64,000 bases of DNA. Source: Shigella phage ChubbyThor. Positions 8,848 through 37,350 of the stretch are shown in pieces (the stretch's first letter is position 1; every line of letters starts with the position of its first letter). The translations under genes and the position numbers were made by a program. The DNA lies in the sequence record OL615013; one strand, given 5' to 3'. The notes under the pieces were generated by a model. It did not search any database. It was not told the DNA's origin and saw only the letters and a list, made by a program, of their open reading frames with translations.

Positions 8848-8899
8848 TTCTCTTTTGTCACGCCCCCGCGTTGCAGAGGCCGGACCGAACCAGGTTGAA

Positions 8900-9178: not shown

Positions 9179-9268
9179 CTGGATTTCTCCGTTGGGTTAA
9201 TGTTTACTTTCATGTTCACTACAAGAGGACTACAGTTTAACTAACAAATTTTATTGAATAAAGCGGAA

Positions 9269-9553: not shown

Positions 9554-9554
9554 G

Positions 9555-15770: not shown

Positions 15771-17972
15771 TTAGATTTTGATCTCTTTCTCTGCCAGTTC
15801 GGCAGTGACCTTGTACTTCACGCCATCCACTTCAACTTCCATGGTTGACTCTTCCAGGTCGAGGTCGGTGAACCAGCCGTGGCCAGCAACGATACCATAC
15901 ACCACTTTAGACAGCGTCTTGTTCAAGGCGCGGACTTCAGTGATGGCCGCCTTGGCAGCAGCGTCGATCCAGTTTTCGATCAGCTGTTTCTGTACGGCTT
16001 CAGGCACGGCAGTGATCGCAGGAGACTTCACGAATGCTTCGTATTCCTTCAGAGCATTGGCGATGAACAAGTCACCCGCATTGAGTTTCTTGTTCTCGGC
16101 AATCTTCTTCTGTACTGCCGCGATGCTAGGCAGAGAAGACGCTCCAGCGATCTTAACGTTCAGCTCACGGCTCATGTAGACATCCGTGGAGTCCTTCAGT
16201 TCGGTCTTCGGTGAGAAGCCGTAATCGCGGATGCCGTAGGAGGACAGGAACTCTGCCGCCTCAGCGCCGTACTGTACTGCCAGGCCTTTGGCGTTACCTT
16301 TGCCAACCAGTTCATCACGGAAGAACTTCAGCACCTTCTGCTTGCCTTTCAGGGCTTCCAGACGGACATTATCCGCAAAGAACTGAGCAGCACTGATGTT
16401 CTTGACCATGGCGCGGTTGACCAGCGGTACGCTTTCCAGGTTCAGGACAAACACTTCCGGACCACCGAACACATGGACGCCCATCTGGCACAGATTGGTT
16501 ACAACTTCAACATCAGCCCTGAACGGCAGAGTCTTCACGTTGATGATGCCGTCTTTGACGATGGTGTAGTTGCGCCACTGGAAAGTATCCAGTTCTTCAG
16601 GCAGACCGAACTTCTTCTGCACGAACTCCGGAATCGCCACAGTGCCGTGCTGGACAGTGCGTACACTGATATTAGGGCGTTCGGAGTTATAGACCAAATC
16701 GCTGATTGGCACAACACCCAGATCGTTGTTAGGTTCGAACGTCGGGTTCCACTCTTCGTGCTCGGCCAGCTTGAGAGCCAGGGCTTTGCGCTCTTCTTTG
16801 GACTCGGCGTTCGCGATCTGTTCTGCCAGCTTGTCTTCGGTATCGTCCAGTTTCTGAGCCGTACCGCGACCGATGCTCTTGTAGGAGAACATAGGATGTT
16901 TGGTAGCAACACACACGCCAGCTTCAGCCAGATACGTCAGCACGTCAACGACGGTCGTCGCATCTTCAGCTGGAACCAGGTCATAATCAATACCGTCAAC
17001 GCCGCGCAGCTGGTCATCAACGATGGCCTGGGTCAGATCAACTTTGATGTTGGAGTAGTCCTGCTTGGTGAAGCAGTTGCTGTACTGTTTGATGAAGCGA
17101 ACGTCACCCGTTTTCTTCAGGGCAGCCCACACCAGGTCTGCGTCCATGATGTGTACGCCGTAGAACGCCAGCACGTATGCCGCCTGGATGTCCGCCAGCG
17201 CATCAAGCTGGTCGATCATGTTAGGATTGACGACCCACAGCTTCGTGACGCTCTCAGGGATGCTCACGTGGCCGATAGGATGGTCTTCATCCGGCTGTAC
17301 CGCCAGCACAGTTGCTACGCCGTTTTCAACGTAGATGGCATGATCATACAGCAACGGAACATCAACAACCACTTTCGGCACCGAGGACTTCAGTACGTTT
17401 TCCAGCTCGGTCTGATATTCGGTCTGGCCTTCGGCGAACACGTGAGTCGCGCCGGAACGTTCAGACATCAGAGCCAGCAGTTCGCGGTTACAGTACCAGC
17501 CGTATTCGATGAATGTGACGTTGTCGAAAGCGGAAGGAAGTTTTTCGGCGGTCTCCAGGATCTCATTGGAGCGCCAGCAGTTGTCATAACCATCGGTCAT
17601 GAACGCCAGGTTGTTGACGTAGCCGGGTTTCTTCAGGTCACGCGCAGTATCCATCGCCAGTTTCAATGGTTCAACAAAACCAGTACAGCCGGATGGTTGT
17701 AGGAAGCGGTCGATCAGTTTGTTCAGCTCGCTCAGGTCAGATGCTGCACTAACCTGACGGCCAGCGAACACAGTACCAAAGTCGCCACGGGATGAGAAAT
17801 ACAGAACACTCACAGTATCTTCCGGTTTCACCAGAGAAGGCAGGTTCTCCTTCAGATGCTTACGGACTTCAGGGAGCGCACGGTACATCGAATAAGAGAT
17901 GTCCACAACGATTACATGGTTGGACGGGGCAGCAGTCGCAACCGCATTCTTAAATTCTAATGATTCAATCAT
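15771..17972 (-). CDS. von Willebrand factor A (vWA) domain protein with about 500-aa uncharacterised C-terminal region
   Basis: Track start is TTG; moved to ATG at 17970-17972 (MIESLEF...); MIDAS-like HVIVVDISYSM in N-terminal domain. Confidence 0.6.
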   Translation of the reverse strand: MIESLEFKNAVATAAPSNHVIVVDISYSMYRALPEVRKHLKENLPSLVKPEDTVSVLYFSSRGDFGTVFAGRQVSAASDLSELNKLIDRFLQPSGCTGFVEPLKLAMDTARDLKKPGYVNNLAFMTDGYDNCWRSNEILETAEKLPSAFDNVTFIEYGWYCNRELLALMSERSGATHVFAEGQTEYQTELENVLKSSVPKVVVDVPLLYDHAIYVENGVATVLAVQPDEDHPIGHVSIPESVTKLWVVNPNMIDQLDALADIQAAYVLAFYGVHIMDADLVWAALKKTGDVRFIKQYSNCFTKQDYSNIKVDLTQAIVDDQLRGVDGIDYDLVPAEDATTVVDVLTYLAEAGVCVATKHPMFSYKSIGRGTAQKLDDTEDKLAEQIANAESKEERKALALKLAEHEEWNPTFEPNNDLGVVPISDLVYNSERPNISVRTVQHGTVAIPEFVQKKFGLPEELDTFQWRNYTIVKDGIINVKTLPFRADVEVVTNLCQMGVHVFGGPEVFVLNLESVPLVNRAMVKNISAAQFFADNVRLEALKGKQKVLKFFRDELVGKGNAKGLAVQYGAEAAEFLSSYGIRDYGFSPKTELKDSTDVYMSRELNVKIAGASSLPSIAAVQKKIAENKKLNAGDLFIANALKEYEAFVKSPAITAVPEAVQKQLIENWIDAAAKAAITEVRALNKTLSKVVYGIVAGHGWFTDLDLEESTMEVEVDGVKYKVTAELAEKEIKI

Positions 17973-18135
17973 CGTTATTGCCTTCTTCAGGGTTGTCTTC
18001 GGCCTCACCTTCCGGCTTGACCAGCATATGTTCAAGGAAATCGCGATTGAGTTCAATCTGACTCATCAGCGTTTCCGATGGGCTAAAGCGGCGGTCGAGG
18101 TTGTCGACGCCCGCACGTTCAAATGGTTTGGCCAT
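17965..18135 (-). CDS. small acidic protein (56 aa)
   Basis: ATG at 18133-18135 next to stop of upstream ORF; 8-nt overlap with vWA start. Confidence 0.35.
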   Translation of the reverse strand: MAKPFERAGVDNLDRRFSPSETLMSQIELNRDFLEHMLVKPEGEAEDNPEEGNNDD

Positions 18136-18538: not shown

Positions 18539-20203
18539 TCAGATTTGTGATGCCAGTTCTACTACGAGAGGAGCGGCACGGACACGCGCATCTTCCAGAG
18601 TTTGAGTGTTGAAGAACTTGCCGTCACGATACACCAGCTGGTGCTGGTTGTCGGCGTCTTGCACCTGATCAAAGGTGATACCGTCAACCAACACTAGTTT
18701 ACCCTGAGAGTCTTTAATGACTTTAAGGAAACCACGCGCAGACTTTTTAGTCCCGCCTTTGTCGGTCTTCGGCTCTTTGAAGATCTCACGGAATTCGCCG
18801 TTCACCTTACCAGCCGTTGCTTTCACCGCCGTGCCAGTACTGTCACGGGTGTTCATCTGGTAGGTGTAGGAACCGATACCGAACACCACGTTGATGGAAG
18901 CGAAGTTCCGGCCAGCCAGACGACTAAAGATCTGGTCTTCACGTGCCAGGGTGATGGAGTCACCGTAGATCAGACCGATGTGTTCGTCCAACAGGAAGTG
19001 GCCAGTTTCAGTTTGAGTACCGCCAAAGATCTCCCACAGGCGCTGGATAGAGCCGACTGCTTCAGAACGGCTGATGATATTACGGTCGTCTGCCATCAGA
19101 GAGTTGATCGTGCCTTCGCCTGTGATCAGGTGATAGGTGTTCGTCTCTTCGATGTGAATGACTTCAGTGCTGCTAGACACGCCGCTGATGTTCAGCGTGG
19201 CGCGGTCTTTGAACCCCTCAATGCGGTAGCCGCCGACGATATGAACTGGGTCGCCCGAGTCAGGGCGGATCACGACTTTACCGTTACGCGCCATGATAAT
19301 GTCTTTCAGGCGAGGGAGATAGTCGTCGATGACCTGCCAGTAATCCCACGCATCAGACACGATGCTGACGATGCCATCAGGATACACGTCCTGCACCAGG
19401 CGGCGGAAGGTTTCGAATTCGCCATCCTTCGTACCCATACACATCACGGCGTGTTCGGTAGCCGCAACAGAACCAGCAACGACATAGTCTTCGTCGATGT
19501 CTGCGCCATAATACTCTTCTACGAAGTCCAGGGCAGGGTTGGTATCGGTGCCTTTGAAGAACACCAGATGACCGGAACCGGAAGACGCCGCGTCATGCCA
19601 TCCACTCATGCCACGGAAGGAGAAGTCGTGGCCTTGGTAGTCGATGAACCAATGGTCCGGCGACACGCCTGTAGCGAGGGCAGCTTTCACCATCAGTGCC
19701 TTGTAATGCAGGGCGATGGTGGCGTTCGTCATCGGCTTCCAGATCTCAGAGCTGAACACAGTCTCCAGATAGTTGGTCAGCCAGTAGAACTCCGGCAGGG
19801 TGTTGAACATCACATACACCGGAACGCCATATGGGCACATGGTGCCTTCAGGCAGAGCACGGACTTCGATAGGCAGGTAGCCGAGGTCATGCAGGGCTTC
19901 AATATGCTCTGTGCCGACGCGGCCTGGACCCAGGACTTTGTTCATGCGACGGGCATACTTCTTCAACACCTTGGCCTTTGGGCGCTGGAAGAATGCTTCG
20001 TCAAACAGTTCGTGGAACCAGGTCATGAAGCCCTGGATGCCCCAGACCACCACGCCGTTCTTCGGCAGGTGAGAGTTGAACAGTTTGTTGGAGCGCGGAG
20101 TTCCGTTGGAGAACACCAGCTCGCTGCCTTCAGGGAACTGATAGATGTGCCCTGATTTGTAGAAGTCGATTGCATGGATTGGGTCTAAGTGGCGCATGCT
20201 CAT
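18539..20203 (-). CDS. nicotinamide phosphoribosyltransferase family protein (NadV/Namat-like)
   Basis: NAMPT-like motifs DFSFRGMSG, VSDAWD, RPDSGDP, GLIYGDSIT; 4-nt overlap with upstream PRPP-synthetase-like gene. Confidence 0.8.
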   Translation of the reverse strand: MSMRHLDPIHAIDFYKSGHIYQFPEGSELVFSNGTPRSNKLFNSHLPKNGVVVWGIQGFMTWFHELFDEAFFQRPKAKVLKKYARRMNKVLGPGRVGTEHIEALHDLGYLPIEVRALPEGTMCPYGVPVYVMFNTLPEFYWLTNYLETVFSSEIWKPMTNATIALHYKALMVKAALATGVSPDHWFIDYQGHDFSFRGMSGWHDAASSGSGHLVFFKGTDTNPALDFVEEYYGADIDEDYVVAGSVAATEHAVMCMGTKDGEFETFRRLVQDVYPDGIVSIVSDAWDYWQVIDDYLPRLKDIIMARNGKVVIRPDSGDPVHIVGGYRIEGFKDRATLNISGVSSSTEVIHIEETNTYHLITGEGTINSLMADDRNIISRSEAVGSIQRLWEIFGGTQTETGHFLLDEHIGLIYGDSITLAREDQIFSRLAGRNFASINVVFGIGSYTYQMNTRDSTGTAVKATAGKVNGEFREIFKEPKTDKGGTKKSARGFLKVIKDSQGKLVLVDGITFDQVQDADNQHQLVYRDGKFFNTQTLEDARVRAAPLVVELASQI

Positions 20204-21054
20204 TTTACACGTCCTGTATTTTCAGTTTTGAAAGGAAGACCGTCGGCGGTGATATTCTCCCACCAGACAGTGTCGGCATACACAGCATCGTAAATCCCGT
20301 CGAAAACAGAGAGACCTTTGCTGAAGATGCCATGGGTAACGAAGAGCGTCATGTGTTTGGGCTTGTGCTTCTGAAGCTCTTTGCCTAACTCAACGAACGT
20401 GCGCCCACCGTCGCAGATATCATCAACCACAACCAGATAGCGGTCTTTGATCAGTTCAGGGTTTGTAATGCTCACCCCAATGATCTCACCAGTCTTGGTG
20501 TCACGGTTCTTGTGTCCGTAGACAACAGGAACACCATCCAGAGACAGGCTGAGGGCTTCGGTCTTCTTCGCCGCGCCACCGTCAGGGGCTACCAACACAG
20601 CATTGTTCCCACGGATGAACCAGCCCAGATACTGACGCACGATGTAATCTTGCGGGACAACATGGACGTTGTTGATCAGAGAAGTCACAACATGGCTGTG
20701 AGGGTCTTTGATCGCCACGCGGTCAAAGTTCATGCTATTGATGAACTCAGCCGCCCACTTCACAGACAGAGGCTCGCCGAAGTCGCAATGGCGGTCCTGG
20801 CGAGCATACGGGAAGTAAGGGATATACGCATGGAATGTCGTCAGACGATCCACGTTGCCCAGGCCACGCACGGCGTTTACCAGAAGCGCCAGCTCAATGA
20901 AGTCGGCTGATGATTTGATGTGAGCATCAATCACCACGTTCTGGACGTGACCGACAGGGATGCCAGCCTTTTGGATCTTGATATGTTCCTCACCACCTGG
21001 GAAGGTGAAGTGCTTGTAGAACACATCTTGGTCGTTCAATTTCAAACGAAACAT
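20200..21054 (-). CDS. ribose-phosphate pyrophosphokinase family protein (Prs/Adps-like)
   Basis: PRPP-binding motif VVVDDICDGGRTF and VLVAPDGGAAKK; size typical for Prs family. Confidence 0.8.
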   Translation of the reverse strand: MFRLKLNDQDVFYKHFTFPGGEEHIKIQKAGIPVGHVQNVVIDAHIKSSADFIELALLVNAVRGLGNVDRLTTFHAYIPYFPYARQDRHCDFGEPLSVKWAAEFINSMNFDRVAIKDPHSHVVTSLINNVHVVPQDYIVRQYLGWFIRGNNAVLVAPDGGAAKKTEALSLSLDGVPVVYGHKNRDTKTGEIIGVSITNPELIKDRYLVVVDDICDGGRTFVELGKELQKHKPKHMTLFVTHGIFSKGLSVFDGIYDAVYADTVWWENITADGLPFKTENTGRVK

Positions 21055-21164
21055 AATGTAGCCTCATGGTGTATTGTACAGCCGTATTATACTGTGATGC
21101 ACAAATTGAAACACCCAGCAAATATACTGGGCGTCATTGATATTGAAGGAGTTTGATAATTCAG

Positions 21165-21959
21165 TTATTTGTAGGAATCGACGATGGCCTTGAACAGCGC
21201 GTCCTTCTGGTCGGTTGGGATATAATCCGCCGGAGCCAGCAAGAGCCGCCTGATGTCTTCACAGCAGCCTTTCTGCTCTTCGGCGCTCATCTTATCCCAA
21301 GTGGTGGCATTAAAGTAGATCCCACCCTTGTAAGCCGCCGTGCAAGTCTTGGCCAGGCGAACAACGAGTTCTGAATACAGTTCATCAGGCCGCATGTGTG
21401 AACGCAAATATGTTTCCACTCTGGCCTGGACTTTGCTGTTGTGTTGGTCATTGTGAAGTTCGTTGTCGGTATGAATAAATTCAGCACCGAATCCGCGACT
21501 TGGGTCTCGTGGATGATGGAACACGAAAGACTGGCTATGACCTTTCAAGAATTCCATCCCAGCCATATGATTTATCTTCCCCCTTTCGGAGATGTACTGC
21601 AAGATATCTATCTTCGCATCGGCGGTGGCCGCCTCCAACATCTGCTTCTCCACGACGGCGCGGTAGGCTTCCAGTTCCCACAACTGGGAGAAAGTCTTGT
21701 CATAGGCCAGCTTCTTACCCAACTCTTCATCAAAGTTGGCAGGGTCGATGGAAGTAGAGCTATTCTTGCCCCAGACGACAAAGCCGTTGTCCATCTTGAA
21801 ATGGCAGGTGATGACACGATGACCGCCGACTTCACGGTCTTCATAGATGACTTCAGCAATGTGGGACTTCAGGAGGTCTGGAGACAGCTTCAGACCTTCG
21901 CGAACAGATTTACCCTTCAGCTCAACACCTTTGGGTTCATTACGATTGATGGTTGCCAT
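21165..21959 (-). CDS. hypothetical protein (264 aa)
   Basis: Track start is TTG; moved to ATG at 21957-21959 (MATINRNEPKG...). Confidence 0.45.
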   Translation of the reverse strand: MATINRNEPKGVELKGKSVREGLKLSPDLLKSHIAEVIYEDREVGGHRVITCHFKMDNGFVVWGKNSSTSIDPANFDEELGKKLAYDKTFSQLWELEAYRAVVEKQMLEAATADAKIDILQYISERGKINHMAGMEFLKGHSQSFVFHHPRDPSRGFGAEFIHTDNELHNDQHNSKVQARVETYLRSHMRPDELYSELVVRLAKTCTAAYKGGIYFNATTWDKMSAEEQKGCCEDIRRLLLAPADYIPTDQKDALFKAIVDSYK

Positions 21960-22341
21960 TCTGTGTTTCCCGTAATTGGTTGCATACAACAACTACTTTA
22001 CGGCACATGTCGATATCGAACAAGCCGATATGGCAATCACGCTTCTTGATCCCCAGCTTATGCGCCAGCCAACTGTAAGCGTCGCTCCTGCTCCTCTCTC
22101 CGCTTTTCCACAATGGGTCAAACGATCTATGGGCTTTTCGCTTCTCGGCACGGAGAGCGGCATTCGCCATCCTTCCCAGAGGTTGTCTGCCGTCGCCATG
22201 GGCATGGCAACCGACACGAGCGTCACATGGAGTGCATACCCAGAACTTCAGATTGCGGAGGTCAGGGCGATGAGGGTGGAGGACGTCACCACCGACGAAT
22301 TCGGCTGGGTGGCCGCAGTAATCACAGATGACAGGTTTCAT
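21940..22341 (-). CDS. zinc-ribbon phage protein
   Basis: CDYCGHPAEF...FWVCTPCDARVGCH four-Cys/His pattern; start moved to ATG at 22339-22341 just after terminator hairpin. Confidence 0.5.
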   Translation of the reverse strand: MKPVICDYCGHPAEFVGGDVLHPHRPDLRNLKFWVCTPCDARVGCHAHGDGRQPLGRMANAALRAEKRKAHRSFDPLWKSGERSRSDAYSWLAHKLGIKKRDCHIGLFDIDMCRKVVVVCNQLRETQNGNHQS

Positions 22342-22358
22342 ATTCTTTGTCCAAAAGA

Positions 22359-22379
22359 AACCCCGCACATGGCGGGGTT
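22359..22379 (-). terminator. intrinsic terminator
   Basis: AACCCCGC / GCGGGGTT 8-bp stem, loop ACATG; minus-strand RNA continues UCUUUUGG. Confidence 0.65.
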
Positions 22380-22401
22380 GCTCAGGCCGAGGCCAACAGG
22401 G

Positions 22402-22773
22402 TTATTTCAGCAGCGCTTCCAGTTCTTCAACAGATTTGCCTTCCAGCTCCTGCTGTTTCTTACGCTGGATCAGCTCCAGGATAACCTGGTTGTTCGCCTT
22501 ACGCTCTGCCGCGTCTTTGCTGTCGTCACGCTCTTTCAGCTTAACGCCGATGATGTGCTTGACAACGTCGAAGCGCAGCTGCAGTTCGGAGTCAACGTTG
22601 CTTTTGGTGCCGATGAAATCTTCTTCATCGGTTTCCGCTGCCTTCACCTGACGGCTCAGACCTTTGGCCATTTCGTTCAGGGCGGTCAGGCTAAGGTCCC
22701 AGACCTGCTCAACAGACAGCAGACCTTTGTTGGATTCGAAGCGCAGTTTCAGACGGGTTGCTTTATCAAACAT
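22402..22773 (-). CDS. hypothetical protein (123 aa)
   Basis: ORF track; ATG at 22771-22773. Confidence 0.45.
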   Translation of the reverse strand: MFDKATRLKLRFESNKGLLSVEQVWDLSLTALNEMAKGLSRQVKAAETDEEDFIGTKSNVDSELQLRFDVVKHIIGVKLKERDDSKDAAERKANNQVILELIQRKKQQELEGKSVEELEALLK

Positions 22774-22817
22774 TTTACTATCCTCAATGATGAATGGGTT
22801 ACAATTTCAAATCAGGT

Positions 22818-24836
22818 TTAGAACACAACTTTCACAGTGCGGTTGAACGAGCCGCTCACCTTCACGAACACGTGGTTGCGTTGGGTGGTAGAGAAGCCCA
22901 GACCGGACAGCTGCTCAGTGCTTGGCTGTACTTTAATCTTACCACCTAACATTTCAAAAACCTTGCGGTGTTTATCAAGTTCCGGCTTCAGATATTCGTT
23001 GTAGAAGCCACGGGTGCCGACAGGGTTAGCACAACCTTCCAGGATGAAGAACACGTGCTTGTTGCCCGTCTGCTCGCCGTCCCAATGGTTTGGTGAGTTC
23101 AGAACCAGCTGTACCTTCTGGAAGACGGAGGTCTTGATGCCCCAGATTTCCTGAGAGCGAGCGTCGTCTTTCAGGGTAGAACTGATGTCGACCACCTGAC
23201 CAGCGCGTACCTGAACCACAACAGCCAACGTGCGGTCTTTGTTTCCCAGACCAGGATGCGAGAAGCGCTTGGTCTGGCCTTTGTATTCAACTTCGATTTC
23301 GAAGCCCACATCGCAGGTTTCGCGCTTGCTGTAGTTGGTGACATAGAACTCATAGTTCCCGTCACGCAGCTTGCATTCATCGCTGAAGAAGATGTTCTCC
23401 ACCGGACGGCGGTTCGGGTCAATACCGTCCATACCGTTCATGTCGATGTCCAGGGTTGCACCAGTTGCCGAACGACGGTTGTTGAAATACACGTGGTTGT
23501 GAAGAGGATCGTTCAGGCTCAGATCCAGGTCGTCGTTGTTATGCCAAGCCAGCGACACACGGAGGAAGCTGTCGACGTTGCCGCCTGCGGTCTTCACGCG
23601 CTCTTTGATGGAGTCGGCCACTTCACCGTTGTATGACCAGCTGAAGCCGTTGTTCCACTTGAACAGGTTAGGAGCACCTGCCGTAGCCGGAGCGATCAGG
23701 GACATCAGGTTGCCAGTGTGAGAGTTTTCAACCAGCACTTCCAGGGAATGCGCCTTTGGCAACACGTTGGTCAGGAAGTCGTCGATGGTGATCTCTTCAA
23801 CCTTGTCCAGGGACTTGGTCGGAGTCTTCACTTCAGACGCCAGCTGAGCAAACGGGTCCATCTTCTTCTGCGCTGCCAGGTCGGCGAACAGAACGTTGTT
23901 GATGGTCAGATCGTCATACACGGCATAACGGCGACCCAGTGAATCGGTCAGACCCAGCGCTTCGACTTCTTTCTGCGCGTTTTCAATCATGGACTTCGTG
24001 ACCAGCGCGGTTGGGCGCTTGTAGTTCGTCGGAGCGACTTTGGCTTCAAAGGACTTCACGGCGGTTTCCAGATCCCGACCTTCATTGAGGTCTACCAACA
24101 GAGAGCCAATCACGGTATTGCGGATGCCGTGAGGGGTGTGTCCGTTTGCACGGTAGCCAGTACGCCAAGCCCACAGAGCGCGTTTCTCTTCTGCAGTTTG
24201 TTCGTACAGGGTCTTGCTCGTCACGAACGCCTGTACTGCTGCTTTGTGCTCTTCACCACGATACAGAGAATTCTGATCAATCAGTTCCAGAACGATTTCG
24301 GCCGATTCCAGAGACAGTTCACGCAGGCCGCGCTCAAACACTTCAATCGCCTGGCGGATTTCACCCTTCTTAGAAGCGATGACATCAGCCCGCAGAACAT
24401 AGCTGGGCAGCAGGTCGGTGTGGAAGTGGTTGTAGGTGCGGACATTACCGTCTTTCATTTCGTGATTCGACTCAACACCGACTTTCTTGGTATCGTTGAA
24501 GTACACGTCGACGATTGCGTGTTGCTTGACATACGCAGACAGCGCCGCGGCGACAACGTCGTATTCGTTACCCAGCTGAATGTTATCCCAGATAGAGATC
24601 ACGTTCAGGTCGGCGTCGATGGTCACCACACCGCCGATGTTACGGATGAATTGTTTACAGCAGGTGCAGTCGTGCTCGGTGCGCTCACGGTAGAGCGGGT
24701 TGGTGCCAGCAGGGAAAGAAGACAGATACAGATCCCACAGAGCATCTTTATCGATGTTGGTCATGAACAGACCAGTTGCTGACATGGCCAGCACATTATT
24801 GTTTACAGCTACTGCGAAGGGCTTAAATTCTGACAT
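22818..24836 (-). CDS. large hypothetical protein (672 aa)
   Basis: Long ORF with ATG start; no polymerase or other motif recognised. Confidence 0.6.
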   Translation of the reverse strand: MSEFKPFAVAVNNNVLAMSATGLFMTNIDKDALWDLYLSSFPAGTNPLYRERTEHDCTCCKQFIRNIGGVVTIDADLNVISIWDNIQLGNEYDVVAAALSAYVKQHAIVDVYFNDTKKVGVESNHEMKDGNVRTYNHFHTDLLPSYVLRADVIASKKGEIRQAIEVFERGLRELSLESAEIVLELIDQNSLYRGEEHKAAVQAFVTSKTLYEQTAEEKRALWAWRTGYRANGHTPHGIRNTVIGSLLVDLNEGRDLETAVKSFEAKVAPTNYKRPTALVTKSMIENAQKEVEALGLTDSLGRRYAVYDDLTINNVLFADLAAQKKMDPFAQLASEVKTPTKSLDKVEEITIDDFLTNVLPKAHSLEVLVENSHTGNLMSLIAPATAGAPNLFKWNNGFSWSYNGEVADSIKERVKTAGGNVDSFLRVSLAWHNNDDLDLSLNDPLHNHVYFNNRRSATGATLDIDMNGMDGIDPNRRPVENIFFSDECKLRDGNYEFYVTNYSKRETCDVGFEIEVEYKGQTKRFSHPGLGNKDRTLAVVVQVRAGQVVDISSTLKDDARSQEIWGIKTSVFQKVQLVLNSPNHWDGEQTGNKHVFFILEGCANPVGTRGFYNEYLKPELDKHRKVFEMLGGKIKVQPSTEQLSGLGFSTTQRNHVFVKVSGSFNRTVKVVF

Positions 24837-24951
24837 GATGTAGTCTTCCTGTTTCAGTTCAAATGTGCGCCCCGTTTGCCAGGGCGCTTCGTTTAAGTGA
24901 GGTCAATAATACGTTGAAAAAAGTTATTGAAGAATGAAGTAAAGGGAATCT

Positions 24952-26175
24952 TTATTCAGGTTTCTTCAAACGGTCCAGCAAATTGACGGAACCACGTTTG
25001 AGCACGACTTCATCACAGCGCTTTTTGTATTCCCCACCGCCGTCATAGCTGACCTTGCCCCGAGGTTTTTCACCGCGCCCAACCGCCTCAACACAGCGAG
25101 TGTACTTGCTCAGTTCACAGAACATGTTCTCCAGCTGCATGACGTTCATGCATTGGTCTACAGGCTCTTCGGCCGACCAGAATTGCTCGCGAACATACCC
25201 ATATTGGGAGTATACCGCGTCCTGATTATCCCGTAGCCAGAATATGCATTCTTCGTGAGTCATGCCGTCCTTGTTCAGGAACAGCAGATCAATACCTGCG
25301 CGACAGCCCGGTCCGGCGATCGTGAAGTGATTCTCGCTGAACGGATAACCAGGCATGTACGTGAAATCAACCCAGATCTGATAGGCCAGGAATGGACCAA
25401 GCCCTTCAATGTCGTCGTACATGCGCTGGTATACTTCCAGAGGAGTATCAAGACGCAGCAGGTCATGGAAGTAATTTGGGTGCTTGTTGACGAATGCCTT
25501 CAGGGAACGGATAACACGCATCGGCATGTATGGTTCCCATCCCTCGATGGTATATTCACCAGGATTCTCTTCGACCAGCTTCTTGGCGACCTTGTAGTCC
25601 ATCTCGTCCACAATACCCTGGCCAACGCGATACACTTTCACCATCATCCCACCGAAGCGCTGCTCCTTGTGGTTGACAACCAGCTCAGGGAAAGCCAGGC
25701 ATTGCTTCAGGCCGCCTGTGTTGAAGGCATTGGTGAACACCTTGCCGCCGTCGGCCTCGAACTTCTGAAGTCGTTCGCGGGTTGCGTCAAGGTTGATCTT
25801 GGCGAAGTCTTTGATCGTCATCGCGCCGCCGATAGCCTGGATCGGATCCCAGAGGTTGAACATGCGGAACAGAACGCAGTTGAACATCTTGTCTGCCATG
25901 CCCAGAGCATCGTTCTTGACGATGTTATTGATCAGGTTGAGAGACTGCCTGTCGTGCTCTCTCCGGACGTTACAGAACTTGACCTGCCGTAGTATAGGAT
26001 TATTGGTCCAAGGGGCAGGAAGACGCTGGACGTCCTTCTTGACGTGGATCTTATAGCGCTCGCTCATCCATTCGTAAGACAGGCGGGTATGGGTCGGACT
26101 GAGAACCGGTTTGGCCGACTTTATCTTTTCTTCACGGACACCGCAGTACGGGACGTCCAGGGCTTTATCTTTCAT
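24952..26175 (-). CDS. hypothetical protein (407 aa)
   Basis: Long ORF with ATG start; no motif recognised. Confidence 0.6.
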   Translation of the reverse strand: MKDKALDVPYCGVREEKIKSAKPVLSPTHTRLSYEWMSERYKIHVKKDVQRLPAPWTNNPILRQVKFCNVRREHDRQSLNLINNIVKNDALGMADKMFNCVLFRMFNLWDPIQAIGGAMTIKDFAKINLDATRERLQKFEADGGKVFTNAFNTGGLKQCLAFPELVVNHKEQRFGGMMVKVYRVGQGIVDEMDYKVAKKLVEENPGEYTIEGWEPYMPMRVIRSLKAFVNKHPNYFHDLLRLDTPLEVYQRMYDDIEGLGPFLAYQIWVDFTYMPGYPFSENHFTIAGPGCRAGIDLLFLNKDGMTHEECIFWLRDNQDAVYSQYGYVREQFWSAEEPVDQCMNVMQLENMFCELSKYTRCVEAVGRGEKPRGKVSYDGGGEYKKRCDEVVLKRGSVNLLDRLKKPE

Positions 26176-26199
26176 GGTATCCTCTTAGAATACGAAAAA

Positions 26200-26220
26200 C
26201 AGAGGCCATTATAGCCTCTG
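26200..26220 (-). terminator. intrinsic terminator
   Basis: CAGAGGC / GCCTCTG stem, loop CATTATA; minus-strand RNA continues UUUUUCG. Confidence 0.55.
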
Positions 26221-26244
26221 TTGTTTAGTGAATAACTGTATATC

Positions 26245-27126
26245 TTAATCGATACGGGTCAGCTGGGTGATAGATGATTGCACTGGGCTGGCCACATAGA
26301 TACGGACGTTGGCTTTCCATTCACCCCAGATCAACGGCAGAGTTGGGAAGTTGTCTTCATTGAAAACAAACACGGGAATATAACTCTCGACTGTTTCACC
26401 AGAGAACGCCTGGAAGCCCATCTTGGCGTACCCCATAATCTCGTCAACAAAGTCGAACGGAGCGAAGGCAACACCAGCGTGTTCGTTGCATCCGAGTCGA
26501 CCTGGGGTAGCCGTGCCCGTCAGAATGATTTCGGTTATCTGGCGCTTAGGCTCGGTGGTCAACATATCAGAGAAGTCCGGCTCTTTGAATGCTGCCATGT
26601 TCTTCAGGAACTTGCCAGCCGGGTACTCTTTGCCGTCGACGGTGATGGTGTCTACCACTTTGATGCACGCCTGGGGGAATTCCCCTTCGATGCGTAGACT
26701 TTCGCGTGGGAAGCCTTTGTTGTAGTAGTAATCCAGTGCAGGCACAACTTCACCTTCATTACGAATGAACTTGCTCATGTTGGAAGCATAAACGCGCTGT
26801 AGGCACTCATCGCCGTCGAAACCAGCAATGTGAGCCACGCCGTCATTGACGGTGGTGATATCACCCTGGGCGTCCATGATCTTTTTCATGGCATTGATAC
26901 GAGCTTCCGGATCAGCATAAACCGGGTTATCGCTCGGCTTGGGGGTGACAGACAGAGTCAATGCCACGTCATGGTCAAAGAATGCCGCTTCCATCAGTTC
27001 GCGGGTTTCTTCCAGCACCAGTTTCGCCTGATTGCGGATCTTACCAAAGTCGGGCGATGTGACGTCGCCCTTTGCATTACCGAAAGCCAGATTCAGATTC
27101 ACGTTCTTAGAAAATGTAGTTGTCAT
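26245..27126 (-). CDS. hypothetical protein (293 aa)
   Basis: ORF track; N-terminal LVLEETRELMEAAF is faintly MazG-like; unconfirmed. Confidence 0.55.
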   Translation of the reverse strand: MTTTFSKNVNLNLAFGNAKGDVTSPDFGKIRNQAKLVLEETRELMEAAFFDHDVALTLSVTPKPSDNPVYADPEARINAMKKIMDAQGDITTVNDGVAHIAGFDGDECLQRVYASNMSKFIRNEGEVVPALDYYYNKGFPRESLRIEGEFPQACIKVVDTITVDGKEYPAGKFLKNMAAFKEPDFSDMLTTEPKRQITEIILTGTATPGRLGCNEHAGVAFAPFDFVDEIMGYAKMGFQAFSGETVESYIPVFVFNEDNFPTLPLIWGEWKANVRIYVASPVQSSITQLTRID

Positions 27127-27142
27127 GATTTAGCGACTCCAG

Positions 27143-27607
27143 TTATTCGCTTTTGGCCTTTGTAGGCCGGATAATGTATTTTGGAACCAGCTTCCATTCA
27201 GGAACCTGATCGTGTTTAACCACTTTAATGCGTGACATATCGGCGGCTTCGGTGACCTGCTCGGGATGAATGACCTTCACCATGTTCCACTGCTCAAGCA
27301 GCTTGATGATGCGGTTCATCCTCAGGACATCTTCGCGGTTAAACCCGTTGTAATGCCCGTCCAGCATAAACAGATGCTTGAAGTGGACGATATAATACTT
27401 GCCATACTTATGAAGAATATGACAAGTCTGATACAGAGTATTCGGCTCTTGGCGCGTGTTTACCCCAATTCGGCTCAGTGTTTCCTTGATCCCCAGGAAT
27501 ATTCCTGGCCGATCTTGGTTCAATTGAACTTCAACCATACAATCAACGATGCTGGCCTCATCGTTGACGGCTGAAATGTTCAATATGTCTAGCGTATTGC
27601 GCGCCAT
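27143..27607 (-). CDS. regA: translational repressor RegA
   Basis: Recalled similarity to T4 RegA (LYQTCHILHKYGKYYIVHFKHLFMLDG ... EWKLVPKYIIRP); sits after gp62 as in T4. Confidence 0.85.
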   Translation of the reverse strand: MARNTLDILNISAVNDEASIVDCMVEVQLNQDRPGIFLGIKETLSRIGVNTRQEPNTLYQTCHILHKYGKYYIVHFKHLFMLDGHYNGFNREDVLRMNRIIKLLEQWNMVKVIHPEQVTEAADMSRIKVVKHDQVPEWKLVPKYIIRPTKAKSE

Positions 27608-27636
27608 GACTCATTCCCCTTTTACAATAGTTTGAA

Positions 27637-28059
27637 CTACTTAGCCTTGCGCGGTTTCGCTTTGGCGTTCAGCTCAGTACGTCCCATCTTCTCGCGTATC
27701 TCGGCCAGGACTTCCTTCGGCAAGAAACGGACGTACTCGGATGCCTTCTCCATGCTGATGTAGAAGTACTCGGAGAGTAACTTCACGTCAGGATCAATCG
27801 GACCTTTCTTAGACCATTTGTCGTAGCGTTTCCGCGCCGGAATGGTGTGAAAGGCATATGACCATTGCATCCATGGAGTGACAGCATGCAGCTTGTTCAT
27901 CTGCTGTGCAGTCACCAGAGTGTCTTTGCTCTGAGCTAAACCACGCCGCGTCATAAACGGGTCGAATCCTTTCAACACTTCTGGGTCATCAGACTGCAGA
28001 AGGTTTTCTTTGCTGCTGTTCAGAGCAGCCAGGTAATCGAACAATCCAGGGGCGGCCAT
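27637..28059 (-). CDS. 62: clamp loader small subunit (T4 gp62-like)
   Basis: IPARKRYDKWSK resembles T4 gp62 VPRGKRYGKWAK; position between gp44 and regA. Confidence 0.75.
   Translation of the reverse strand: MAAPGLFDYLAALNSSKENLLQSDDPEVLKGFDPFMTRRGLAQSKDTLVTAQQMNKLHAVTPWMQWSYAFHTIPARKRYDKWSKKGPIDPDVKLLSEYFYISMEKASEYVRFLPKEVLAEIREKMGRTELNAKAKPRKAK
27639..27645 (-). promoter_or_regulatory. CTAAGTA variant motif upstream of regA
   Basis: minus-sense GGCTAAGTAGTTCAAAC about 32 nt upstream of ATG 27607, overlapping the gp62 stop. Confidence 0.25.
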
Positions 28060-28063
28060 AGTA

Positions 28064-29053
28064 TCACTTCCACTTGATGTTGAGCATGACGTTTGTCAGG
28101 AAAAACACAGCATGCAGCCAGACATCGCCGACCTGACGGTGTTCAATCTGAGACTGACCACATACGCATACCAGATCAGGGATAGACTCATTCTGAACCA
28201 GCATCGGCTTCTCTTTATCCTGTGGTACACAGAACTGGAAGAAGCGGGAATAGAAGTCTTCGGTGATGTAGTTCTGGTTGTCAGTCACCCACTGCTTCAT
28301 GCCAGCCCAGTCATTGGCTTTCAACATAGCAACCAGCGTACCGAGGTCAGCCGCTTTCAATACAGCCAGAGCGCGTTCGTCGATCTTGCCATAGGTGGTG
28401 ACGTTGTCCTGTAGGGCACCCATGATGCGGCGGTTGTCAGGGAAGTTGCGCTTGACGATGGCGGCCAACACCTGAGGAACGAACTCAACACCTTCGGCGC
28501 GAAGGATTTCAACGCAACGGAGGCAGAACTTGTTCTGAACTTCCAGTGCTTCCTGCTCGTTCCAGATAAAGTCGATCTCACGGCAACGGGAGCGCAGAGG
28601 TTCGTTGACACGCTGCTTGGCGTTGGTGGTCAGAATGAACGAGCAGTTCTTGGAGACCTTCTCTACGATACCCTTCAGAGACTCCTGCGCCGCCATAGAC
28701 AGGCGCTCCACTTCGTCGAGGATAACGACTTTGCGACCACCGAAGACACTCACGCCAGTAGAGTACTGAATCACGCGATCACGGATAACATCAATGCTGT
28801 TGTCCAGGGATGCGTTGATCAACAGAGGTTGCTTACAGCCGATTTCGTTACACACGGCCAGAGCAGAGGTGGTCTTGCCAGTACCAGGTCCAGGGGAGTA
28901 GAACAGCATCGAAGGGATGTTGCCGTTGCCACTTGTGATATAACCGTGGATTTTAGCGCGGACGTCCTGGGGGATGATGATCTCATCCAGGTTGTCTGGA
29001 CGATATTTGTTTTCCCATGCGTACTGGTCGGAAACGATAGTGATATTAGACAT
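28064..29053 (-). CDS. 44: clamp loader large subunit, AAA+ ATPase (T4 gp44-like)
   Basis: Walker A SPGPGTGKTT, Walker B VVILDEVER; start moved to ATG at 29051-29053 (MSNITIV...). Confidence 0.85.
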   Translation of the reverse strand: MSNITIVSDQYAWENKYRPDNLDEIIIPQDVRAKIHGYITSGNGNIPSMLFYSPGPGTGKTTSALAVCNEIGCKQPLLINASLDNSIDVIRDRVIQYSTGVSVFGGRKVVILDEVERLSMAAQESLKGIVEKVSKNCSFILTTNAKQRVNEPLRSRCREIDFIWNEQEALEVQNKFCLRCVEILRAEGVEFVPQVLAAIVKRNFPDNRRIMGALQDNVTTYGKIDERALAVLKAADLGTLVAMLKANDWAGMKQWVTDNQNYITEDFYSRFFQFCVPQDKEKPMLVQNESIPDLVCVCGQSQIEHRQVGDVWLHAVFFLTNVMLNIKWK

Positions 29054-29084
29054 TTCAGCCTCTTGTAGAAGAATCATTTCAAAC

Positions 29085-29103
29085 GGGCGGGAAAGCCCCG
29101 CCC
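29085..29103 (-). terminator. hairpin between gp45 and gp44 (terminator/attenuator-like)
   Basis: GGGCGGG / CCCGCCC stem with 5-nt loop, followed on minus-strand RNA by GUUUGAAAUG and the gp44 SD. Confidence 0.45.
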
Positions 29104-29132
29104 ACACATTATAGCATCAGGCTGGAGATTGA

Positions 29133-29801
29133 TTACTCAATCTGTGCGCCGACGAAGTAATTGATCGTCGCATCGGAGGACTGGAAGTTCACCATCTGCA
29201 GTTCGGCACAGGCGCGCAGAGTGTAGTTGCCTTCGATCATCTTCAGGTTGGCAACGTCCAGCGGCATTACGAAGTCCGGCAACGCGGTTTCACCCAGCTC
29301 AACAGTGTAGTTGTTGGAGTTATCCAGGGTAGTGGTGGTCGCAACCAGACGAGTTTTGCCGCCCTGAGCAACCAGACGCACTGTCTTGTGACCGAGGGTA
29401 GAACAGGCGCGGGTCAGTTCTTTCATCTTCTCTGGAGTGATGATCGCTTCAAAGTCGACAGACGGCAGTTCAATGGTGTCAGCCGGAACGACAGTGAGTT
29501 CTTTAGCAGAACGCCAGAATTGCAGCTGAGAGCTTTCGCCTTTCAACAGGATGTAGTCCTGATGGAATTCGGCTTTACCGCCTTTGAAGGAAGGCAGGCG
29601 CTGGATGGCCAGAAGTTTGGTCAGGTCCAGGATAGGGAACTCAAACGGGAAGTCTTCTTCGATCTGTGCCACGGCGATAACAGTAGACGAATCGTTGATG
29701 CTGCGCAGCATCTTACCCGGTGTCAGAACGATAGATGGGTTGATGGTCTCAAAGTTGGCCAGCAACTGGAGTGTACGTTCGGAGAGAGTGATCTCTTGCA
29801 T
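29133..29801 (-). CDS. 45: sliding clamp, DNA polymerase processivity factor (T4 gp45-like)
   Basis: Size and position upstream of gp44/gp62 as in T4; recalled gp45-like sequence. Confidence 0.75.
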   Translation of the reverse strand: MQEITLSERTLQLLANFETINPSIVLTPGKMLRSINDSSTVIAVAQIEEDFPFEFPILDLTKLLAIQRLPSFKGGKAEFHQDYILLKGESSQLQFWRSAKELTVVPADTIELPSVDFEAIITPEKMKELTRACSTLGHKTVRLVAQGGKTRLVATTTTLDNSNNYTVELGETALPDFVMPLDVANLKMIEGNYTLRACAELQMVNFQSSDATINYFVGAQIE

Positions 29802-29991
29802 TTATGTATCCTCAAAATATAGTGGGGTTCAAGTCATGTTTGACGCAATCTAGTATCGCTGTGTTGTGCTTATAGAACAAGTGGCAAATTGCGCTACGCG
29901 TTATTAATAAATGCCTTCGGCATTTATGGACTTTATTAAAGATAATAACCTTTATTAATCCTATTCGCTTCGCTCATAAAACAAATACTCG

Positions 29992-30021
29992 TTGTTCGTT
30001 AACACTCACAACTCGTATAAT
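29992..30021 (+). promoter_or_regulatory. sigma70-like promoter candidate (TTGTTC-N18-TATAAT)
   Basis: Read directly in AT-rich intergenic region between gp45 and the plus-strand gene. Confidence 0.3.
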
Positions 30022-30078
30022 ACCACGCCATTTGTTCAACAGGAAAGCAATTTTTATTCAACAGCAAAATTAATTTAT

Positions 30079-30107
30079 TTGGTCTAAACATGCACGCGAA
30101 ATAATAT
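30079..30107 (+). promoter_or_regulatory. sigma70-like promoter candidate (TTGGTC-N17-TAATAT), about 35 nt upstream of ATG 30142
   Basis: Read directly in AT-rich intergenic region. Confidence 0.35.
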
Positions 30108-30141
30108 GTATGTCATGTTAACCAACACACGAGAGTAATAT

Positions 30142-30519
30142 ATGAAACAGTTCGTAGGATTATATGCGGTCGGATGCAGTAAGCCAGACGCCATCCTCAC
30201 CGCAGGGCAATTTGTCACAGGCACCCCAGTTTATCTGGCGCAGCTGGCGTCAGACAAGAACTTACCATCGGAGCCGCGATTTGTCCCTCTGGGTTTGATG
30301 ACAGGCCTGAAAGTTGGTCTGTATGTCGGTGTGGTGACGTTTGAAAACGGCGTCGAAGCGAAAGTTCTGCCATTCAAATTGGGCAGCGAACAAATGCTGA
30401 AGGATACGATCAGTGAACACCTGAACACACAATGTCTGGCTTCTCTGGACAAATTGTTCGGCGCAGTATCTGATGAAGGCGAGGCCACCCCCGCCTATGT
30501 GAATCAAGATCAGTCGTGA
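30142..30519 (+). CDS. hypothetical protein (125 aa), plus-strand gene
   Basis: ATG with GAGAG SD; protein-like sequence; converges on uvsW with 10-nt overlap. Confidence 0.5.
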   Translation: MKQFVGLYAVGCSKPDAILTAGQFVTGTPVYLAQLASDKNLPSEPRFVPLGLMTGLKVGLYVGVVTFENGVEAKVLPFKLGSEQMLKDTISEHLNTQCLASLDKLFGAVSDEGEATPAYVNQDQS

Positions 30520-35181: not shown

Positions 35182-35910
35182 TTACTTCAGCGCGCTCTTC
35201 AGATTATCAGAACCGATGTTGTTGATAACGCCACCAGCGCACAGGTCTTTAGCCCACTCAGACAGTACATTGGCGAACGAGAAGTTCAGACACTTGCTGA
35301 CCATGTCTTGGATGTGGGCTAACTCTGAGGCAATACCATTGGCGATATCCTGACCGATTTGCGCCACCTGAGCAATAGCATCGTTGATATATCCGGTAAC
35401 TTCGGCGGCCAGCGCCTGGATCTTTGCCAGGCCAGCGCTCACACCCTGCGCAACTAACTCAGCCAGTTCGGCCATCTTGGCGGTAACAGTGCTGAGAGCG
35501 CCCTCCATGGCCCCGATCCACTGGTGCCCAAGAGTCTGTATGACGCCGAAGGCATTATTGATCAGATCACAGTTGGTCGGCTCGCGCTCGATTGACTTCA
35601 GGCCAGATTTGTACGACACGGAAGTCCCGATGCGGGAATACGCTTCGTTCACAGTCTGATCACCATAGTTGTTCAGCGTGGTGAGGCTGGTGTCGGCAGA
35701 GGTGAACATCGTGTTCGTTTCATTGAGTTTGGCTGTGGTTAGACCGCCTGCCGTCAGAGCGCCCTGGATTTGCGTATTTCCGGTGTTTGCCAGTGCAGCT
35801 GTAGTCGCCTTGCCGCTGGTGATTAAACCCTGAGACGTGCTGCTGAGGGACGGGAGAGGATTGTTAAATGCGTTGCCCTGCTCAAGGGCGTCATAGATCT
35901 GTGCGTTCAT
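35182..35910 (-). CDS. hypothetical protein (242 aa), Ala/Gly/Thr-rich N-terminal half
   Basis: ATG at 35908-35910 (MNAQIYDAL...), immediately after a perfect hairpin carrying the CTAAATA motif. Confidence 0.55.
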   Translation of the reverse strand: MNAQIYDALEQGNAFNNPLPSLSSTSQGLITSGKATTAALANTGNTQIQGALTAGGLTTAKLNETNTMFTSADTSLTTLNNYGDQTVNEAYSRIGTSVSYKSGLKSIEREPTNCDLINNAFGVIQTLGHQWIGAMEGALSTVTAKMAELAELVAQGVSAGLAKIQALAAEVTGYINDAIAQVAQIGQDIANGIASELAHIQDMVSKCLNFSFANVLSEWAKDLCAGGVINNIGSDNLKSALK

Positions 35911-35913
35911 AGA

Positions 35914-35942
35914 AAATACCCCCATGGATGATGGGGGTATTT
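35914..35942 (-). terminator. perfect 12-bp hairpin directly upstream of a start codon
   Basis: AAATACCCCCAT / ATGGGGGTATTT arms with 5-nt loop; minus-strand RNA continues UCU then AUG. Confidence 0.5.
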
Positions 35943-35944
35943 AG
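35938..35944 (-). promoter_or_regulatory. CTAAATA late-promoter-like motif upstream of 35182..35910
   Basis: minus-sense CCTAAATACCCCC, part of hairpin, about 28 nt upstream of ATG. Confidence 0.4.
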
Positions 35945-35948
35945 GTGA

Positions 35949-36116
35949 TCATGGCAGTTTGTAAACGAAGTTGGACCAGAACTTCCGAGCGAACTTCTTG
36001 GCATAGACCTTCCAGTCGGCGTATTCGCCTTCCTTCAGGTCATTGTAGGTCTCGAACCCTACTGCTCCCAGGAAGTACGCCGTGAAGATATAGCAGAACA
36101 GATTGACGACAAACAT
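35949..36116 (-). CDS. small hydrophobic protein (55 aa)
   Basis: Not in ORF track; ATG at 36114-36116 with GGAG SD about 9 nt upstream; translation MFVVNLFCYIFTAYFLGAVGFETYNDLKEGEYADWKVYAKKFARKFWSNFVYKLP. Confidence 0.4.
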   Translation of the reverse strand: MFVVNLFCYIFTAYFLGAVGFETYNDLKEGEYADWKVYAKKFARKFWSNFVYKLP

Positions 36117-36157
36117 GATGTATCTCCGCTGTGTGAACTCAAATTATTTATGGTATG

Positions 36158-36580
36158 TTACAAAAGGCGCTTGGTCTTCGGCTTGCCCATCAGTGTGATG
36201 TCCACAGGGAGGCCAGCTTTCTTGCAACGGTTGATCATGTCCAGGGTGCCAGTGGACGAGCCGTCCCACATCGCAATCGGATACACTTCCAGCTTGGTCT
36301 GCCTGACGAGATCCAATGCCTTGTCTAACATGTCCTGATTGCGTTTGTTGCCCATCCCTTTCCCATACTTTTCATAATAGCTCGGAGGGATTGGCATAGG
36401 AGTGATATGAACATAATTGATTTCAGCCCAATCACGGCAAATCGTGTCGACACCCGTGGCCTCACCCTCGATCAACGTATAGACTTCATGAGGATCGAGG
36501 AGTTCGTCCAGCTTGGCGAATACCTTATCCCGCTCGGTGATTGAGCGGGAACCTGTAACGAGTACGATATATTTCTTCAT
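36158..36580 (-). CDS. SLOG/DUF2493-like Rossmann-fold protein
   Basis: MKKYIVLVTGSR...GEATGVD...YGKGMGNKRNQDML...AMWDGSSTGTLDMI pattern; track start is GTG, moved to ATG at 36578-36580. Confidence 0.5.
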   Translation of the reverse strand: MKKYIVLVTGSRSITERDKVFAKLDELLDPHEVYTLIEGEATGVDTICRDWAEINYVHITPMPIPPSYYEKYGKGMGNKRNQDMLDKALDLVRQTKLEVYPIAMWDGSSTGTLDMINRCKKAGLPVDITLMGKPKTKRLL

Positions 36581-36585
36581 GGAAC

Positions 36586-36906: not shown

Positions 36907-36965
36907 GATAAAGTCCTCTATTTGTAGGGGATAGGGTATGCGGTTAACATACCCCGTTCAAAGGT

Positions 36966-37247: not shown

Positions 37248-37350
37248 GATATAGTTCCTTCATTTCAGAGTCAGTGTTGTGCTGCTTATGGAATGAAGTA
37301 TACGGGGTTTATTGAAGAAGTAAACCCCGTTTATTGAATAAATTTAAAAT

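Follow-up and report, generated by a model that had tools for sequence, protein, structure and literature searches.

Phage ViI, whose virion DNA carries a hypermodified thymidine, offers the closest described system for the locus discussed here. Its modified nucleoside, 5-(2-aminoethoxy)methyl-2′-deoxyuridine (5-NeOmdU), was made by five ViI lysates together, gp160 among them (Lee et al., 2018). In later work by Lee et al., the pathway was rebuilt with a purified kinase, the serine transferase gp247, which was found to be necessary, and the pyridoxal phosphate-dependent decarboxylase gp226. The virion DNA of these phages is free of 5-hydroxymethyl-2′-deoxyuridine (5-hmdU), which is turned into either the hypermodified base or canonical thymine according to the sequence context (Lee et al., 2021). 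A further point of reference is phage T4, in which the gene order 45-44-62-regA leads to the DNA polymerase gene 43. We describe here positions 22,818 to 27,126 of a 64,000-nucleotide stretch of Shigella phage ChubbyThor (sequence record OL615013). This whole stretch is referred to as the window; all coordinates are those of the window unless another genome is named, and the features given lie on its minus strand. The T4-like 45-44-62-regA block is followed there by three open reading frames (ORFs) of 293, 407 and 672 amino acids (ORF 293, ORF 407 and ORF 672), with which the annotation of Shigella phage MK-13 agrees. A preliminary description of this DNA had taken the three genes to be uncharacterised, had proposed that they form one accessory enzymatic module in place of gene 43, and had guessed at thymidine hypermodification as its function. 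In our analysis, the slot probably holds three separate units: the MazG-like ORF 293, ORF 407 as a member of the hypermodification gene set, and a cassette built around ORF 672, a protein of the family DUF8224.

Judged by its sequence, the window phage is a ViI-like Agtrevirus of the family Ackermannviridae. The 5.2 kb around the locus are 96.5% identical to the DNA of phage MK-13, and Salmonella phages P46FS4 and SKML-39 as well as Shigella phage Ag3 reach 95–96% DNA identity over the locus. A nucleotide search with the segment matched 282 phage records, 185 of which have one place covering at least 80% of it. ORF 407 (24952–26175) matches the Pfam family PF18723 over residues 30–364 (E 4e-82), its 276.2 bits lying above the cut-off of 25, and is 88% identical, over 407 of 407 residues and with no gaps, to ViI orf00160 (Vi01_130c). 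The latter is the gp160 of Lee et al., because their protein numbers follow the orf numbers, as seen for gp67 (accession YP_004327432), which is orf00067; gp160 is listed by them as “aG/PT-PPlase1” (Lee et al., 2018, Table 3). In ViI the gene likewise comes after regA and the MazG-like gene, the flanking genes are alike, and we see no material difference between the two proteins. On this similarity, ORF 407 is the ortholog of gp160.

The family name calls for some care. The current Pfam name of PF18723 is “HMUDK_hel”, or “5-hmdU DNA kinase, helical domain”, but ORF 407 has neither a P-loop motif (GxxxxGK[ST]) nor a kinase match in Pfam, and since the P-loop is absent it is not a kinase. The kinases proper are ViI gp67 and gp243 together with their MK-13 orthologs. 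A Pfam scan of other ViI proteins placed gp67 and gp243 in two kinase families (PF18748 and PF18747) and gp247 in PF18724, “amino acid:DNA transferase”, and therefore PF18723 is the family formerly called aGPT-Pplase clade 1. MK-13 encodes all of the ViI pathway proteins at 76–91% identity, with the kinase, transferase and hydroxymethylase genes located outside the window. The family is said to have been described already in 2013, by Iyer and colleagues. It was treated in two further papers (Lee et al., 2018, 2021), and an Agtrevirus genome paper already lists the ortholog of ORF 407 as “aGPT-Pplase1”. A gp160-type gene after regA is thus part of the thymidine-hypermodification gene set, known since 2013–2018; ORF 407 is not entirely uncharacterised, and for this gene the guess at hypermodification was a good one.

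The neighbourhoods of PF18723 genes in other phages point in the same direction. In Vibrio phage 207E48.1 and in a contig of 139 kb (L008), genes for polymerase, kinase 2, transferase, PF18723, kinase 1, a thymidylate-synthase homolog and dUTPase_2 follow one another in a run. Lysinibacillus phage LysYB1 (Herelleviridae) and Rhizobium phage RHph_TM26 both have a transferase gene followed, in this order, by kinase 1, a small ORF, PF18723 and a thymidylate-synthase homolog. In Acinetobacter phage SH-Ab 15599 (hereafter phage 15599), the PF18723 protein (Pfam E 6e-40) is encoded directly upstream of the dUMP hydroxymethylase, and the gene right after 44-62-regA is a characterised diamine:DNA transferase (loci 3922–5251 and 8961–9926 of that phage cover the transferase and PF18723 observations). 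In a second phage assigned by NCBI to the Ackermannviridae, the post-regA slot is thus also taken by a gene for hypermodification. The hypermodification pathway of phage 15599 was reconstituted in a 2026 paper, in which the term “Pplase1” gave no match and mention of the PF18723 protein was not found. In all, six phage lineages have PF18723 alongside genes for the 5-hmdU DNA kinase, the transferase and the dUMP hydroxymethylase. Because of these neighbourhoods and of the pathway genes of MK-13, we regard PF18723 as a conserved core member of the hypermodification system; of the conserved cluster members, it alone has been assigned no reaction. The small ORF that stands between kinase and PF18723 in three phages was considered as a fourth component and discarded, as no homology could be detected among the three small proteins.

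ORF 672 (22818–24836) shows quite a different distribution. It matches phrog_1735 end to end (E 0), and its homologs of 49–99% identity carry the precomputed Pfam assignment PF26675 (DUF8224). PDB sequence searches, made with single sequences and with profiles, and NCBIfam and PADLOC scans returned no match for this ORF, nor for ORF 293 or ORF 407. The DUF8224 family is very large: of the 8000 candidates scored, 5302 clusters at 90% identity were matches, and 4924 cluster representatives were obtained at 50% identity. By tblastn, it was found in 558 phage records, typically with 40–55% identity over the full length. These include the Ackermannviridae, myophages of Serratia, Klebsiella, Cronobacter and Pectobacterium, phiCbK-like phages of Caulobacter, Ralstonia phage phiRSL1, Herelleviridae of Bacillus, Schitoviridae of Stenotrophomonas, and others. 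An ORF of 123 amino acids (22402–22773), which lies beyond the coordinates of the preliminary description and encodes a helical, charged protein (phrog_2018), has a homolog directly downstream of DUF8224 in every phage examined, namely ViI, two metagenomic phages, Piffle, McCartney and Karma (jackhmmer E 1e-43 to 1e-66 in the six; 47% and 37% identity by BLASTP). Even where one host is Gram-positive and the other Gram-negative, the pair retains 40–50% identity. A terminator-like hairpin with an 8-bp stem and six GC pairs follows the 123 aa ORF (22359–22379), and in Caulobacter phage Karma a predicted terminator is annotated after the DUF8224 pair at the same place as this hairpin (22379–22359). 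The DUF8224 loci examined outside the Ackermannviridae contain no PF18723, kinase or transferase genes, some entire genomes with DUF8224 and its partner likewise show no genes for thymidine hypermodification, and DUF8224 is absent from the hypermodifying phage 15599, which sets it apart as a separate cassette. We conclude from these comparisons of sequence that DUF8224 and the 123 aa ORF are likely to form an independent two-gene cassette extending to 22402.

As for its structure, the AlphaFold2 model of ORF 672 (mean predicted local distance difference test score, pLDDT, 82.9) contains a predicted TerD-like beta-sandwich at about residues 420–560 (23157–23579), assigned by fold match, and the N-terminal domain of the family has invariant acidic, Cys and His residues. 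The TerD family comprises Ca2+-binding beta-sandwich proteins of tellurite resistance (PDB 2qz7 and 2kxt), whereas in ORF 672 the fold is one domain of a multidomain protein. No TerD sequence model matched ORF 672, and Foldseek returned nothing significant against the PDB with the 672 aa model. The DUF8224 cassette would probably act as an enzyme on some cellular molecule that is universally conserved, and would have the small protein as obligate partner; that the predicted structural match is limited to one domain and to the level of the fold counts against this reading. Among phage gene pairs with no known function, this one ranks with the more widespread and the best conserved.

Several smaller observations concern the same gene. 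In the ViI RefSeq record (35300–37319), DUF8224 appears as two coding sequences of 491 and 183 amino acids (Vi01_128c and Vi01_129c), both named orf00158, and in Salmonella phages SP1 and phage 38 it also matches in two pieces. The split may come from a frameshift or an error of sequencing, or else the gene is really disrupted; the split gene is the source of PHROG families 23228 and 25920. An AAA/ATP-binding protein is encoded within a few kb of DUF8224 in two unrelated phages, Piffle (574–2786) and McCartney (6538–9985), accompanied in Piffle by a vWA-like DUF2201/metallopeptidase gene and in McCartney by a metal-dependent hydrolase gene; the proximity may reflect a loose association or be due to chance.

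The family label of ORF 293 (26245–27126) comes from PHROG: the match is to phrog_2144, annotated “MazG-like pyrophosphatase”, with E 5.8e-129, and more weakly to phrog_671, a “nucleotide pyrophosphohydrolase” family, with E 2.6e-19. Several GenBank records label its homolog nucleoside triphosphate pyrophosphohydrolase. The protein is 59% identical to ViI Vi01_131c. Residues 1 to about 190 are conserved, while the C-terminal stretch of about 100 residues (26245–26545) diverges sharply between Agtrevirus and Kuttervirus; MazG and dUTPase enzymes lack such an additional, fast-evolving tail, and the homolog in phage 15599 (jackhmmer 2e-42) appears to be without most of it. In a large database the family counts 277 proteins, nearly all of them from ViI-like phages. 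Acidic helices can be picked out by eye at residues 39–43 (EETRE) and 85–89 (DAQGD), a part in which the 15599 alignment is unreliable. On the PHROG label, which it has in common with MazG and the all-alpha NTP pyrophosphohydrolases, ORF 293 is a probable nucleotide pyrophosphohydrolase of unspecified substrate. Such an enzyme would trim the (d)NTP pool in support of replication based on the triphosphate of 5-hmdU (5-hmdUTP), and for this ORF the guess at hypermodification is plausible. Two results weigh against the MazG assignment: in addition to the missing NCBIfam and PDB matches, ORF 293 has no Pfam match even at E 10, the MazG and dUTPase_2 models being below detection, and hhalign of ORF 293 against dUTPase_2 gave a non-significant probability of 0.2. 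A strong terminator-like hairpin (26222–26198), with an 11-bp stem followed by a T run, separates the gene from ORF 407, which suggests that the two belong to separate transcription units. Counts of sigma-70-like promoters and of terminators were not above shuffle expectation, and for this reason the two hairpins of the locus are proposed from their position only.

The predicted model of ORF 407 has a helix-hairpin-helix (HhH), DNA-glycosylase-like fold, as found in the amino-acid:DNA transferases. Proteins of this fold bind DNA and flip out a base. We aligned seven PF18723 homologs, those of the window, ViI, Vibrio phage 207E48.1, contig L008, phage 15599, LysYB1 and RHph_TM26. Invariant positions include R72, D75, R76, R104, Y265, D270, the GPG of residues 288–290 and G294. 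The motif GPGCRAG (25294–25314; codons G288–G294, with G288, P289, G290 and G294 invariant) is a putative HhH hairpin for the DNA backbone. Near the C-terminus, the motif ENMFCE (25114–25131; codons E349–E354) contains C353, the only invariant cysteine of the alignment, which is followed by the likewise invariant E354, K357 and Y358. The active site of the transferases contains one invariant, catalytic Cys together with a metal-binding Glu and Thr, four and three positions ahead of the Cys (E222, T223 and C226 in Pplase2 of phage 15599). E349-N350-x-x-C353 of ORF 407 locally resembles E222-T223-x-x-C226 at the level of the motif.

With the transferases themselves (ViI gp247, M6 gp51, PaMx11 gp46/PUGT and 15599 Pplase2), ORF 407 has the fold in common, but a relation in sequence is undetectable. 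It has no Pfam match to PF18724 (ADDT, aGPT-Pplase clade 2) and no BLASTP similarity to gp247. The serine:DNA transferase of ViI is gp247 and not the PF18723 protein. The two also differ in vitro, where the transferase is needed for the hypermodified base and the PF18723 protein is not.

What might such a protein do? Borohydride converts the exocyclic-methylene intermediate of the transferase to thymidine (Lee et al., 2021), which indicates that reduction chemistry is feasible on this fold. We found no enzyme assigned to the thymine branch of the pathway in the literature. In the reading that we favour, ORF 407 would be a catalytically active enzyme that applies its single invariant cysteine to 5-phosphomethyl-2′-deoxyuridine (5-PmdU) in DNA, and its most probable task would be the other fate of this intermediate, its conversion to ordinary thymine. 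In the fullest form of this idea, which is tentative and which we consider rather unlikely as it stands, PF18723 may be the missing enzyme that restores thymine from non-hypermodified 5-hmdU in DNA. Cys353, with E354 following it, would attack C6 of 5-PmdU; the phosphate would be expelled to give the exocyclic methylene, to which a hydride would be delivered instead of an amino acid. The product would be ordinary thymine at the sites that are not hypermodified, as an enzymatic counterpart of the borohydride reaction. We infer all of this chemistry, and set it beside identities, orthology, folds, neighbourhoods and distributions that were observed. A thymine-restoring role would explain why the gene is conserved beside kinase and transferase in every lineage examined, why it is dispensable for the hypermodified base in vitro, and why virions contain T but no 5-hmdU. 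If true, it would complete the hypermodification pathway and would provide the labelling and engineering of DNA with a “hydroxymethyl-to-methyl” enzyme that works at the DNA level.

Several facts count against the thymine-restoring proposal. In the purified ViI pathway, gp160 is absent and was given no function (later work by Lee et al.), and its counterpart in phage M6, gp55, is dispensable, as lysate reactions worked without it. Only six of the aligned homologs have E349, the seventh having Q in its place, and hhalign of PF18723 against the transferase family gave a probability of 0.2, which is not significant, so that the E-x-x-x-C resemblance stays at the level of the motif. Furthermore, the “helical domain” of the Pfam name fits a non-catalytic, DNA-binding role. 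This is the core of the main rival, in which ORF 407 is a non-catalytic helper of the 5-hmdU DNA kinases that binds DNA, flips out or presents 5-hmdU and sets the TG/TC context or the extent of phosphorylation. Such a helper is possible, if doubtful. It agrees with the fusion of this domain to a kinase in Bacillus phage SP10 (Lee et al., 2018, Table 3), with the sequence specificity of the modification, with the partial phosphorylation of 5-hmdU by kinases alone in vitro (about 23% for M6 gp54), with the closeness of the PF18723 and kinase genes in LysYB1 and RHph_TM26, and equally with the dispensability of the PF18723 protein in vitro. On the other hand, stand-alone kinases are active, as is the SP10 kinase domain without the helical domain, and the Cys-Glu pair together with the Arg, Asp and Lys residues is invariant over a very deep divergence, which is more typical of a catalytic site. 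Catalysis of another kind is assumed where ORF 407 is read as a second group transferase, attaching some other nucleophile to 5-PmdU in a minor or conditional modification. The common fold, the conserved Cys and the varied donors accepted by transferases would allow it, and for SP10, which makes glutamylthymidine, only this type of glycosylase-like domain is listed (Lee et al., 2018, Table 3). However, a single modified nucleoside of 301 Da has been reported from virion DNA of ViI-like phages (Lee et al., 2018), and its formation is explained by the purified kinase with gp247 and gp226, which makes a second transferase improbable.

For the locus as a whole, the rival to three separate units is a single operon for thymidine hypermodification, close to the module of the preliminary description. 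The genes are adjacent, on one strand and syntenic across the Ackermannviridae, and the middle one is a member of the pathway. Yet DUF8224 and its partner are found in Schitoviridae, Herelleviridae, Caulobacter phages and others with no kinase, transferase or PF18723 at the locus; PF18723 elsewhere clusters with kinase, transferase and hydroxymethylase genes and not with MazG-like or DUF8224 genes; the published reconstitution needs neither ORF 293 nor ORF 672; and the hairpin stands between ORF 293 and ORF 407. Because the distribution of DUF8224 is independent of the hypermodification genes, and because it is absent from phage 15599, the trio is not one module, and the guess at hypermodification is not supported for ORF 672. 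The one-operon reading is largely refuted by distribution, and we give it very little chance. A narrower hypothesis makes ORF 293 the phage dTTPase/dUTPase that excludes thymidine from new DNA, since it is annotated as a MazG-like NTP pyrophosphohydrolase and phages of the 5-hydroxymethyluracil (hmU) type need to deplete dTTP. The characterised dTTPase/dUTPase of phage 15599 (gp18), however, is a dimeric-dUTPase-type domain (PF08761) fused to a dNMP kinase; its counterparts are Vi01_058c/059c in ViI and gp008/009 in MK-13, beside the hydroxymethylase, and phage 15599 encodes a homolog of ORF 293 separately. We consider this role of ORF 293 unlikely, and identity with the enzyme of the 15599 type was rejected, there being no sequence similarity and that enzyme mapping to another ViI gene. 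Lastly, DUF8224 with its partner might be a counter-defence or stress module, tied to NAD+ genes or to Ter-like Ca2+ signalling. Consistent with it are the TerD-like domain and, in this phage, the presence of a vWA protein nearby and of Adps-like and Namat-like genes at a distance of about 1.8 kb. But ViI has the cassette and no NAD genes at the syntenic site, the neighbours differ in other phages, and neither a PADLOC match nor a TerD signal at sequence level is seen; such a tie appears quite improbable. We retain three separate units as the reading of the slot. Gene content of this kind is already known for ViI-like phages; what is still of interest is the unassigned chemistry of the PF18723 protein and of DUF8224 with its partner.

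The three genes have one thing in common with T4 gene 43, their map position after 45-44-62-regA. They lack the polymerase domain and motif of that gene, as the preliminary description had rightly noticed: neither DNA_pol_B nor exonuclease domains were matched in Pfam by any of the three ORFs, YGDTDS or DTDS is missing from them, and the Walker A motif is absent from all three. No polymerase motif was found anywhere in the 64 kb window. In the relatives, the family-B polymerase is encoded some 55 kb from the locus (145128–148124 in ViI and 50121–53120 in MK-13, the two being 87% identical). That ViI-like phages keep their polymerase elsewhere is already known, and this feature of the map is ordinary. 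We also considered an ancestral order regA-pol-kinase2-transferase-PF18723 from which the polymerase block later moved, and dropped it, as the polymerase is not preceded by regA in Vibrio phage 207E48.1.

Upstream of the slot, ORF calls and the MK-13 annotation agree on gp45 (29133–29801), gp44 (28064–29107) and gp62 (27637–28059). The translational repressor regA (27143–27607; Pfam PF01818, E 1.9e-34; phrog_242, “translation repressor”; annotated likewise in MK-13) is the upstream anchor of the block. The mechanically called ORF of gp44 has a GTG start and 347 amino acids, but MK-13 and ViI are annotated with 329, which puts the probable true start some 18 codons further downstream. The base composition of the region is unremarkable. 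An Rfam scan of 21000–30500 found no RNA family, and the T4 late-promoter motif TATAAATA is not enriched, with a single match at chance level elsewhere in the window. In Salmonella phages Marshall and Maynard and in Escherichia phage AV101, the same segment matches in two pieces; in Marshall and Maynard an HNH homing endonuclease is annotated inside it, which marks the region as a target for the insertion of mobile endonucleases.

Downstream, the trio had been placed directly next to an NAD+ module, but three genes and about 1.8 kb lie between them. These are the 123 aa partner of DUF8224, a Cys-rich ORF (about 21940–22341; phrog_1934) and a gp49/66-like ORF of 264–275 amino acids (21165–21992). 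The Cys-rich ORF, with a CxxC...CxxC pattern, has 142 amino acids from a GTG and probably about 133 from Met10, and is 81% identical to ViI orf00153. Since no coding sequence is annotated at the corresponding place, the gene is probably missing from the MK-13 RefSeq annotation. The NAD+ module itself (18539–21054) consists of a phosphoribosyl pyrophosphate (PRPP)-synthetase-like protein of 284 amino acids, which scores 105.7 bits against an NCBIfam cut-off of 113, and a NAMPT-like protein of 554 amino acids. No NMNAT was seen near these genes, and the pair looks like the published NARP1 anti-defence pathway (Adps and Namat) rather than classical salvage. An ORF of 761 amino acids (15771–18056; phrog_2426) with an N-terminal VWA domain (Pfam E 5e-6) lies downstream of this module.

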